Assembly: GCF_050320075.1 (NCBI RefSeq)
Contig: NZ_CP190018.1
Source of the DNA: Escherichia coli
GTDB lineage: Bacteria > Pseudomonadota > Gammaproteobacteria > Enterobacterales > Enterobacteriaceae
Direction: 5' to 3' (one strand)
DNA: 64,000 bases
This document shows, in pieces, positions 6,086 to 32,378 of the stretch; the stretch's first letter is position 1, and each line of letters starts with the position of its first letter. The notes under the pieces were generated by a model. The model did no database searches. It was not told the origin of the DNA and saw only the letters and a program-made list of their open reading frames with translations. The translations under genes and the position numbers were made by a program.

Positions 6086-8017
6086 TCAAATGGGGCGGAT
6101 ACTTTCTTCATCCAGCTCCGCATCGAAGAACCGACGCAGGGTCTGAATATTATTATCCGCAATAATGGACTCGCGCGCCTGCGCAAGTTTTTCTTCGTAT
6201 ATCGCCTGACGCCATTCCAGCGGCGTACGCACCGCGGGATTATCATCTTCAACGATAGTCAGTTCAACCGTTGAACCTTTTAACATGCTCAACGCTTCAG
6301 CCAGTTTTTGCTGTGCGCCGCGGTTGTTCAAATGCCGCTGAGAGGAGCGCAAATGCAGACATACTGCGTTGTCGCTCTCCTCTTTCCAGGCATTTAACGC
6401 CACCTGTTCGACCAGTTTTGGTAGCGAAAGTTGACTCACCTGAGCCGCCCACGGGTCGCGCTCAATGGCTTCTGCCGCCAGCTTCGCCGCCAGTTCCGGC
6501 GTTTTTTCATGTTCCAGCGCTTTTTTCAGCGCCTTCGGCGTAGCGACCACTTCTTTTTGCTGCATCACTGGAGTGGTGGCCTTCCAGCGATACGCTTCTT
6601 TTTTGGCTGGCGCTTTTTCCAGCGCCGATGGCACCGGACGCGCCTGAACGCGATCGGTGACCGAAGCCAGTCTTTCCAGCGCAGCGTTATTCACCGGCCG
6701 CGCGCGGGTAGCGGCTGCCGGTTCACTCTTTTTTGCTTTGGTTGCTCCCTGCACGCGCTGCAACTGCTGGCGCGCCGCCAGCACCTGGCTGGTGGTTTCC
6801 GGGAGCGGTACAGTCGGTGCCTGCTGCGGCGCTGATTGCGGTTGCGGCGGCACCTGGGTTGGCGTCATTACTGCCGTTGGCGCGACGGGCGCAAAGGACT
6901 GGCGTGGCACTTCTGGCTCAGGCAGCGGCATACGCGGATGGAACGCCAGCGCGCGCAACAGCGTCATCTCAACGCCCATACGGCGGTCTGGCGCATACGG
7001 TAATTCTTTGCGACCAATCAACAGCGTCTGATAGTAAAGCTGAATATCCGTCGGCGGTATGGTGCGCGCCAGTTCACGCATCCGCAGCTCGATAGCGGCC
7101 ATGTCGTTGCCAAGTGCAGCAGGCGAAAGTTGTACCATCGCAATACGATGCAACAGGCCGAGCATTTCCACCAGCAACGCTTCCCACTCGATACCACGGG
7201 CAGCGGCTTCATTAATCAGTGCCATTACGCGCTCGCCGTTGGCCTCGATCATCGCTTCAACCAGCGACAGCGCCTGATCGTCGTCAAGCGTACCCAGCAT
7301 CGCACTGACCGCCTGAGTTGAAACCTGGCCGTCACCGCTGGCAATCGCCTGGTCGGTCAGACTTAAGGCATCTCGCAGGCTGCCTTCAGCGGCGCGTGCC
7401 AGCAATTGCAGCGCCCGCGGCTCGTGAGCGATATGTTCTTCGTTGAGGATGTGCTCAAGCTGATGGCGAATTTGCTCGACATCCAGCGCCTTGAGATGAA
7501 ATTGCAGACAACGTGACAAAATCGTCACCGGCAATTTCTGCGGATCGGTCGTCGCCAGCAGAAACTTAACGTGCTCTGGCGGCTCTTCAAGGGTTTTTAA
7601 CAGTGCGTTAAAGCTGTGGCGCGACAGCATATGCACTTCGTCGATCAGATAAACTTTGAAACGACCACGCGCCGGAGCGTACTGGACGTTATCCAGCAGG
7701 TCGCGAGTGTCTTCAACTTTAGTGCGCGAGGCGGCATCGATTTCAATCAGATCGACAAAGCGCCCCTGCTCGATTTCACGACAGTTATCGCACACGCCGC
7801 ACGGCGTCGCGGTAATGCCGGTTTCGCAGTTTAGCCCCTTCGCCAGCAGTCGGGCGATAGAGGTTTTTCCGACGCCACGGGTGCCGGAAAAAAGATAAGC
7901 ATGATGAATACGCCCTAACGACAAGCCGTTCGCCAGTGCGGTCAGCACATGTTCCTGGCCGACGACGTCAGCAAAGGTTTGTGGGCGCCATTTTCGGGCT
8001 AAGACCTGATAACTCAT
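6086..8017 (-). CDS. dnaX: DNA polymerase III tau subunit (gamma produced by -1 frameshift)
   Basis: 643-aa ORF with Walker A GTRGVGKTS; internal slippery heptamer present. Confidence 0.97.
   Translation of the reverse strand: MSYQVLARKWRPQTFADVVGQEHVLTALANGLSLGRIHHAYLFSGTRGVGKTSIARLLAKGLNCETGITATPCGVCDNCREIEQGRFVDLIEIDAASRTKVEDTRDLLDNVQYAPARGRFKVYLIDEVHMLSRHSFNALLKTLEEPPEHVKFLLATTDPQKLPVTILSRCLQFHLKALDVEQIRHQLEHILNEEHIAHEPRALQLLARAAEGSLRDALSLTDQAIASGDGQVSTQAVSAMLGTLDDDQALSLVEAMIEANGERVMALINEAAARGIEWEALLVEMLGLLHRIAMVQLSPAALGNDMAAIELRMRELARTIPPTDIQLYYQTLLIGRKELPYAPDRRMGVEMTLLRALAFHPRMPLPEPEVPRQSFAPVAPTAVMTPTQVPPQPQSAPQQAPTVPLPETTSQVLAARQQLQRVQGATKAKKSEPAAATRARPVNNAALERLASVTDRVQARPVPSALEKAPAKKEAYRWKATTPVMQQKEVVATPKALKKALEHEKTPELAAKLAAEAIERDPWAAQVSQLSLPKLVEQVALNAWKEESDNAVCLHLRSSQRHLNNRGAQQKLAEALSMLKGSTVELTIVEDDNPAVRTPLEWRQAIYEEKLAQARESIIADNNIQTLRRFFDAELDEESIRPI
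6723..6734 (-). other. dnaX: dnaX programmed -1 ribosomal frameshift site (A AAA AAG plus -1 frame UGA stop)
   Basis: Plus strand ctttttt at 6728..6734 is the reverse complement of AAAAAAG at about codon 430; -1 frame gives GAG UGA (stop at 6723..6725); GC-rich stem follows. Confidence 0.85.
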
Positions 8018-8145: not shown

Positions 8146-8697
8146 TTAATGGCCCGGGAACGGAACAAGGCTGTAGCTGGTAATGCCCTGTTTTTCGAGA
8201 CGCTGTTCGCCGCCGAGATCGAACAGATTGATAATGAACGCAGCATCAGCCACTTCACCACCCAGACGACGGATCAGTTTAACGGTCGCTTCGATAGTGC
8301 CGCCGGTTGCCAGCAGATCGTCCACCACCAGAACTTTGTCGCCCGGTTTGATGGCATCAACGTGGATTTCCAGCTGATCGGTGCCGTATTCCAGATCGTA
8401 AGTTTCACTGATGGTTTCACGCGGCAGTTTGCCCGGTTTACGGACCGGTACAAAGCCAACGCCCAGACCCAGAGCTACCGGAGCGCCAAACAAGAAGCCA
8501 CGCGCTTCGGTGCCGACAACTTTGGTAATGCCCGCATTTTTGTAACGCTCAACCAGCAAGTCGATGCTGAGAGCGTAAGCTTTCGGGTCTTCCAGTAAGC
8601 TGGTGACATCACGGAAAAGAATGCCGGGTTTTGGGTAGTCCTGAATGCTTTTGATGCTATTTTTGAGATACTCAAGCTGCTGTGCAGTCGCGGTCAT
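8146..8697 (-). CDS. apt: Adenine phosphoribosyltransferase
   Basis: ORF track 201 aa; true protein 183 aa from [16 protein letters not shown]; PRPP-binding motif [13 protein letters not shown]. Confidence 0.95.
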
Positions 8698-23377: not shown

Positions 23378-23491
23378 GGGTGGGGGCCCTGCCAGCTACA
23401 TCCCGGCACACGCGTCATCTGCCTTGGCTGCTTCCTTCCGGACCTGACCTGGTAAACAGAGTAGCGTTGCGGGAGAACCAACAGAGCCCCC
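23378..23491 (-). ncRNA. ffs: 4.5S RNA (signal recognition particle RNA)
   Basis: Reverse complement of 23378..23491 reads GGGGGCTCTGTTGGTTCTCCCGCAACGC...GGCAGGGCCCCCACCC, the 114-nt 4.5S RNA. Confidence 0.97.
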
Positions 23492-31667: not shown

Positions 31668-32378
31668 AAATAAATATCCTCCGGCATAGCCGGAGGTTTT
31701 TCAAATGCGCCTGTAAGGCTCTGTTACCAGCCGCGCCCTAACAGGCGCATACGATCTGACATTTGCATTCAACTTCGTTACTTACGGCCCGTAAACGGGC
31801 TGCCCGGATATGGAATCGATAACTGCTCCCCCATTTTATCCTCTTCAAGCTGGTGCTTTATGTAGTCCTGTATCTTCGCCGTGTTCTTACCCACCGTATC
31901 GACATAGTACCCTCGGCACCAGAACTCCCTGTTTCTGTATTTGAATTTCAAATCCCCAAACTGCTCGTAAAGCATCAGACTGCTTTTCCCTTTCAGATAT
32001 CCCATAAAGCCGGATACGCTCATTTTGGGTGGGATTTCCACAAGCATATGGATATGATCTGCGCGGCACTCTGCTTCCAGAATCCGTACGCTTTTCCACT
32101 CACACAGCTTTCTCAAAATACTGCCTATCGCCCTACGCTTCTCTCCGTAAAACGCCAGTCTTCGGTATTTCGGCGCAAAAACTATGTGATATTTACAGTT
32201 CCAGCGGGTGTGCGCTAAGCTCTTTTCGTCCCCCATTGGGACCCCCTTTTGATTTCTTGTTTGACACTTGCAGTTGCCAGACCGCAAGGTGTTTTAACAA
32301 ATCAAAAGGGGTTTGAATAACTGGCTCAAAGCTGAAAGCTTTCCGGAACCCCCAGCCTAGCTGGGGGTTTTCTGTGCA
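31668..32378 (-). mobile_element. IS200 insertion sequence (IS200/IS605 family), boundaries approximate to about 10 bp
   Basis: About 710 bp extra in the decR-cof spacer; encodes an IS200-type TnpA; subterminal hairpins CCCCCAGC-CTA-GCTGGGGG (32349..32367) and CCTCCGGC-ATA-GCCGGAGG (31678..31696); no terminal inverted repeats, as expected for this family. Confidence 0.85.
31778..32236 (-). CDS. tnpA: IS200 transposase TnpA (HUH/Y1 single-strand transposase)
   Basis: 152-aa product MGDEKSLAHTRWNCKYHIVFAPKYRR...HIHMLVEIPPK...YVDTVG; HUH motif HIH and catalytic Tyr region present. Confidence 0.92.
   Translation of the reverse strand: MGDEKSLAHTRWNCKYHIVFAPKYRRLAFYGEKRRAIGSILRKLCEWKSVRILEAECRADHIHMLVEIPPKMSVSGFMGYLKGKSSLMLYEQFGDLKFKYRNREFWCRGYYVDTVGKNTAKIQDYIKHQLEEDKMGEQLSIPYPGSPFTGRK

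Follow-up and report, generated by a model that had tools for sequence, protein, structure and literature searches.

The window, by which we mean the whole 64,000-nt stretch of DNA that was analysed, carries the genes htpG, recR, ybaB, dnaX, apt and ybaN in the order found in K-12, in reverse orientation. The product of its dnaX gene is identical to K-12 DnaX at 642 of 643 residues, the sole difference being the conservative substitution V257I, and reaches 981.6 bits with the NCBIfam equivalog NF005942 (DNA polymerase III gamma/tau), for which the cut-off is 613. At the nucleotide level the gene is 98.65% identical to that of K-12, with 26 of 1932 positions substituted, 24 of them third codon positions. 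Of 5426 complete E. coli genomes, 5424 have a dnaX gene; the particular allele present here (6086-8017) has at least 99% identity to only 186 of those 5424 genomes and is 100% identical to that of strains YZLc1-3 and Ec-U3. Because its dnaX is 100% identical to E. coli chromosomes, we take the window to be E. coli. The coordinates of dnaX, of the elements within it and of the structured RNAs elsewhere in the window are collected in Table 1.

Table 1. Coordinates of the dnaX reading frames, the recoding elements within dnaX and the other RNA features of the window.
Feature	Position	Strand	Basis
dnaX full-length 0-frame ORF (tau, 643 aa + stop)	6086..8017	-	ORF list
Gamma coding span (0-frame codons 1-430, -1 shift, Glu (GAG), UGA)	6723..8017	-	Conceptual translation, -1 slip at the heptamer
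Rfam RF00382, DnaX ribosomal frameshifting element, full 65 nt	6689..6753	-	cmscan
Internal Shine-Dalgarno-like AGGGAG	6745..6750	-	Position; spacer of 10 nt before the heptamer
Slippery heptamer A AAA AAG (0-frame Lys429-Lys430)	6728..6734	-	Sequence and phase
-1-frame codons GAG (6728..6726) and UGA stop (6725..6723)	6723..6728	-	
3' stimulatory hairpin, 11 bp, two bulges	6693..6722	-	MFE fold and Rfam consensus structure
Bacterial small SRP RNA (ffs)	23387-23483	-	Rfam gathering-level, 68.1 bits
STnc490 Hfq-binding sRNA	32246-32369	-	Rfam gathering-level, 143.9 bits
sraA	41846-41941	+	Rfam gathering-level, 106.7 bits

The matches to ffs, STnc490 and sraA fit with this neighbourhood of the K-12 chromosome. 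A further match, to the Salmonella sRNA STnc460, falls inside the 3' end of dnaX (6146-6235, minus strand); scoring 26 bits where the gathering score is 70 (E 0.05), it was dismissed as most likely a chance match.

The feature of interest lies about two-thirds of the way along dnaX, at codons 429-430 of 643, where the minus strand from 6734 to 6723 reads AAAAAAGAGTGA. The slippery heptamer with which this stretch begins starts at gene position 1284, in phase 2, within the 0-frame codons GC[A AAA AAG] AGU GAA, arranged as X XXY YYZ in the way that tandem -1 slippage requires. Following a slip of one base, the -1 frame runs AAA AAA GAG UGA. An earlier sequence-only reading had reported an intact dnaX frameshift signal at 6723-6734, and this interval does run exactly from the heptamer to the end of the -1 stop, with the heptamer in phase. 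The same reading had the stop following the heptamer immediately, which needs a small amendment: the stop is present, but one sense codon (GAG) intervenes. Conceptual translation through the slip predicts a gamma product of 431 aa with the C-terminus ...ATKAKKE, and the predicted coding end, at gene coordinate 1295, is the same as that of the joined gamma CDS held in K-12 RefSeq.

The bare heptamer is not beyond chance, AAAAAAG being present 21 times in the window against an expected 15.2 +/- 4.0. Three of these copies are inside dnaX, spread over 210 nt, and only the copy listed in Table 1 is in the X XXY YYZ phase. The remaining two, at 6604..6598 and 6526..6520 on the minus strand (lying 130 and 208 nt 3' of the in-phase site), were rejected as shift sites, since their phase is AAA AAA G.

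On the 5' side, the internal AGGGAG is separated from the heptamer by a 10-nt spacer, CAACCAAAGC. The sequence-only reading had given neither this third element nor the strand (minus) on which the signal lies. In the published dnaX cassette, the heptamer is preceded at 10 nt by a Shine-Dalgarno sequence and followed at 6 nt by an 11-bp hairpin (PMC4344849, PMC5389563); the geometry of AGGGAG in the window agrees with that arrangement, and AGGGAG is the sequence that was mutated in PMC5389563.

On the 3' side, the GC-rich stem that had been claimed corresponds to the hairpin ACCGGC-A-GCCGC-uaccc-GCG-C-GC-G-GCCGGU, whose spacer from the heptamer is 5 nt when measured to the A-U closing pair, as in the Rfam model, or 6 nt when measured to the first C-G pair. 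Folding of the downstream sequence, which had been proposed as a check on the stem, predicts this hairpin, with a minimum free energy of -19.7 kcal/mol for the 48-nt segment. Measured against dinucleotide shuffles, however, the energy is unexceptional (z -0.73 for 48 nt, -0.22 for 101 nt). Since folding energy fails to separate the stem from its GC-rich background, we used covariation and the Rfam model as the evidence for the stem instead.

Viewed as a unit, the cassette gives a cmscan match to RF00382 that extends over model positions 1-65 of 65 and scores 96.8 bits (gathering score 35, E 2.2e-21). Over the 161 nt surrounding the site there is no difference from K-12 MG1655 (100% identity), and the substitutions nearest to the heptamer are 156 nt away on its 5' side and 150 nt away on its 3' side. 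Alignment with K-12 dnaX had also been suggested as a check, and it brought to light neither a heptamer mutation nor any loss of the stem; together with the full-length RF00382 match, this identity upholds the earlier description of the signal as a known recoding site. Comparing the window with the K-12 site element by element, we find the same heptamer, phase, GAG UGA, AGGGAG at -10, hairpin, spacing and 431-aa gamma, with no differences in the cassette. All three published stimulatory elements (Shine-Dalgarno-like sequence, heptamer and hairpin) are unmutated and at their published spacing. The cassette also sits in the longest run of dnaX that is free of substitutions relative to K-12 (311 nt, 6889..6579), a run that is only marginally unusual (P ~0.06 in a simulation with uniform third-position changes) and suggestive at best.

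Within E. coli, 5372 of 5423 complete genomes have the identical 65-nt element. Its 32-nt core (6719-6750) is found exactly in 5405 complete genomes, compared with 5424 that have dnaX, and some 19 complete E. coli genomes with dnaX thus carry some variant within the core formed by the Shine-Dalgarno-like sequence, heptamer and stop.

For a comparison across species, one genome per prokaryotic species was scanned with the pattern AGGGAG-N10-AAAAAAGAGTGA, which yielded at least 120 loci. The matches listed include 77 Enterobacterales dnaX loci with 63 distinct cassettes. As the loci were chosen by a pattern requiring the Shine-Dalgarno-like sequence, the heptamer and the stop, only the stem is independently tested by this comparison. 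Among the matches listed, 62 of the 63 distinct Enterobacterales cassettes fold into a hairpin in the same place, whose apical stem and loop vary in sequence and length between genera. We examined covariation over eight stem pairs in an alignment of 32 distinct sequences. At the closing pair, 20 sequences have A-U and 11 have G-C, both sides having changed, and one further pair changes from G-C to A-U. Overall, 98.8% of stem cells are paired, a figure that drops to 19-57% once the partners are shifted by 1-3 columns; 12 cells are changed on both sides, and the observed covariation was reached in none of 500 shuffles. Five of the eight pairs are invariant. Because the stem also encodes tau residues, and because most of its pairs do not vary, coding constraint adds to its conservation. 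Even so, it is the combination of this covariation with the RF00382 score and the identity to K-12 that places the cassette as a whole far beyond chance.

The Enterobacterales dnaX cassettes (from Citrobacter, Enterobacter, Pantoea, Serratia, Erwinia, Mixta and others) have the same AGGGAG-N10-A AAA AAG-AGUGA core as the window, and likewise the outer stem CCGGC/GCCGG at equal spacing. Where they differ is in the apical part of the hairpin, for which there are three stem/loop architectures; the cassette in the window is of the Escherichia/Citrobacter type, with an A-U closing pair, whereas the Pantoea and Erwinia types have a G-C closing pair. Candidatus Pantoea persica has the only one of the 63 cassettes among the matches listed that is without the canonical hairpin. 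Relative to other Pantoea it shows an apparent 12-nt in-frame deletion, with the apical region and the 3' arm gone and the Shine-Dalgarno-like sequence, heptamer and -1 stop retained.

The same 28-nt pattern, AGGGAG-N10-A AAA AAG-AG-UGA, also occurs among the matches listed in Collinsella sp. AM34-10 (8474-8510) and at about 35 other Collinsella loci. There it falls at the extreme 5' end of a gene for a 453-aa RpoD/SigA-like sigma factor, downstream of a primase-like ORF, and the sequence is ATG AAG GGA GAA TCT GTG CCA AAA AAG AGT GAG, with the heptamer in phase and a -1 stop after it. No downstream hairpin was found at the Collinsella locus (MFE -8.7, z +0.99). Given their position at the 5' end of a primary sigma-factor gene and the absence of the hairpin, we rejected these loci as a second family of cassettes; they probably go back to a single chance match, multiplied because the genus is densely sampled.

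Taking these results together, the site is almost certainly the canonical cassette for programmed -1 ribosomal frameshifting in E. coli dnaX, in unaltered form. How it would act is suggested by published studies of the identical sequence. While two tRNA-Lys molecules sit on AAA and AAG, the anti-Shine-Dalgarno end of 16S rRNA would pair with AGGGAG, and the GC-rich hairpin, positioned at the mRNA entry channel, would hinder or slow the translocation driven by EF-G. A large fraction of ribosomes would then slip one base back, with both tRNAs re-pairing on AAA AAA; those that slip would read GAG (Glu) and stop at UGA to give the 431-aa gamma, and those that do not would go on to complete the 643-aa tau. 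In E. coli a single tRNA-Lys (anticodon mnm5s2UUU) decodes both AAA and AAG, making AAG slippery (PMC5009743); there are no tRNA genes anywhere in the 64,000-nt window.

The contribution of each element has been quantified in vitro, where the wild type dnaX cassette gives ~84% frameshifting (PMC5389563). This falls to 50% with the Shine-Dalgarno sequence mutated, to 20% with the hairpin deleted and to 2% with a G AAG AAG heptamer (PMC5389563). In vivo, ~50% of ribosomes shift and terminate one codon later (PMC5009743). Carrying these findings over to the window, the cassette would be expected to shift ribosomes with ~50-80% efficiency, with its three elements in the roles assigned to them in the published experiments. 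Likewise, we infer from its identity to the experimentally studied K-12 sequence that this dnaX would produce both tau and gamma.

Several other ways of accounting for the site were considered. The exact timing of the shift and the possible existence of minor -4 and +2 paths are debated (PMC4344849, PMC5009743), and one could suppose that the cassette is intact but that the -1 phase is entered by several paths (-1, -4 and +2), with excursions of the ribosome between the Shine-Dalgarno and hairpin barriers giving rise to a small family of gamma-like products. Mass spectrometry and optical tweezers have indeed revealed a broad branching of frameshift pathways on mRNAs derived from dnaX (PMC4344849). 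However, the constructs used in that work were engineered, with far longer duplexes (25-55 bp), and caution has been urged against extrapolating -4 shifts to biology (PMC5009743). We regard multiple paths as unlikely here, and in any case they would refine the mechanism and leave the identity of the element unchanged. Much less likely still is that the ratio of tau to gamma made from this allele differs from that of K-12 through long-range mRNA context, the local cassette being identical.

The short product could also, in principle, be made without any ribosomal frameshift. In other bacteria the same outcome, one dnaX gene giving both tau and the shorter gamma, is reached by transcriptional slippage on an A run (Thermus thermophilus) or by proteolysis of tau (Caulobacter crescentus) (PMC5009743), and a run of six A is present at our site. 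Efficient bacterial slippage, however, takes place on runs of ~9 A or T (PMC5009743). Compared with the Thermus and Caulobacter genes, the dnaX of the window has signals that act on the ribosome, is without a long homopolymer for RNA polymerase slippage and offers no protease-site evidence. The conserved Shine-Dalgarno-like sequence and hairpin are stimulators of just this ribosome-acting kind, and mutation of either cuts frameshifting in purified translation systems supplied with pre-made mRNA (PMC5389563). As ribosomal frameshifting is the established route in K-12, which is identical in sequence, we find either of these other routes to gamma scarcely credible. The notion that the heptamer amounts to no more than a pair of lysine codons within a lysine-rich linker, with the stem and stop coincidental and no recoding, can draw on how common AAAAAAG is (21 against ~15 in the window, three copies within 210 nt of dnaX) and on a hairpin energy unexceptional for a GC-rich region, but we give it practically no credence in view of a copy that alone in dnaX combines the X XXY YYZ phase with a Shine-Dalgarno-like sequence at -10, a hairpin at +5/6 and a -1 stop, of the 96.8-bit score with the RF00382 covariance model, of a stem that covaries across genera and of identity to the experimentally characterised K-12 site.

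The canonical dnaX cassette can also be set beside the insertion sequences of the IS3 family (e.g. IS911), which use A AAA AAG-type heptamers too, often with an upstream Shine-Dalgarno sequence and downstream structure (PMC5009743). In those elements the shift fuses two transposase ORFs into a longer product, whereas the dnaX shift truncates the product and does so in a core replication gene.

The feature is thus an already known, textbook example and is entirely ordinary: this is the site that serves as the standard model for -1 programmed frameshifting in bacteria, and its presence here adds nothing new on the biology. It matters only for correct annotation, in that one gene would give two essential clamp-loader subunits of which a mechanical ORF list shows tau alone. 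On this point the claim that ordinary ORF calling misses the site holds for the mechanical list, in which the 643-aa ORF is the only one shown, but not for annotation pipelines, which do capture the element; other genomes of E. coli carry the PGAP label 'DnaX frameshifting element' over these 65 nt. What the case does illustrate is that a genuine recoding signal on the reverse strand is recognisable from raw sequence.
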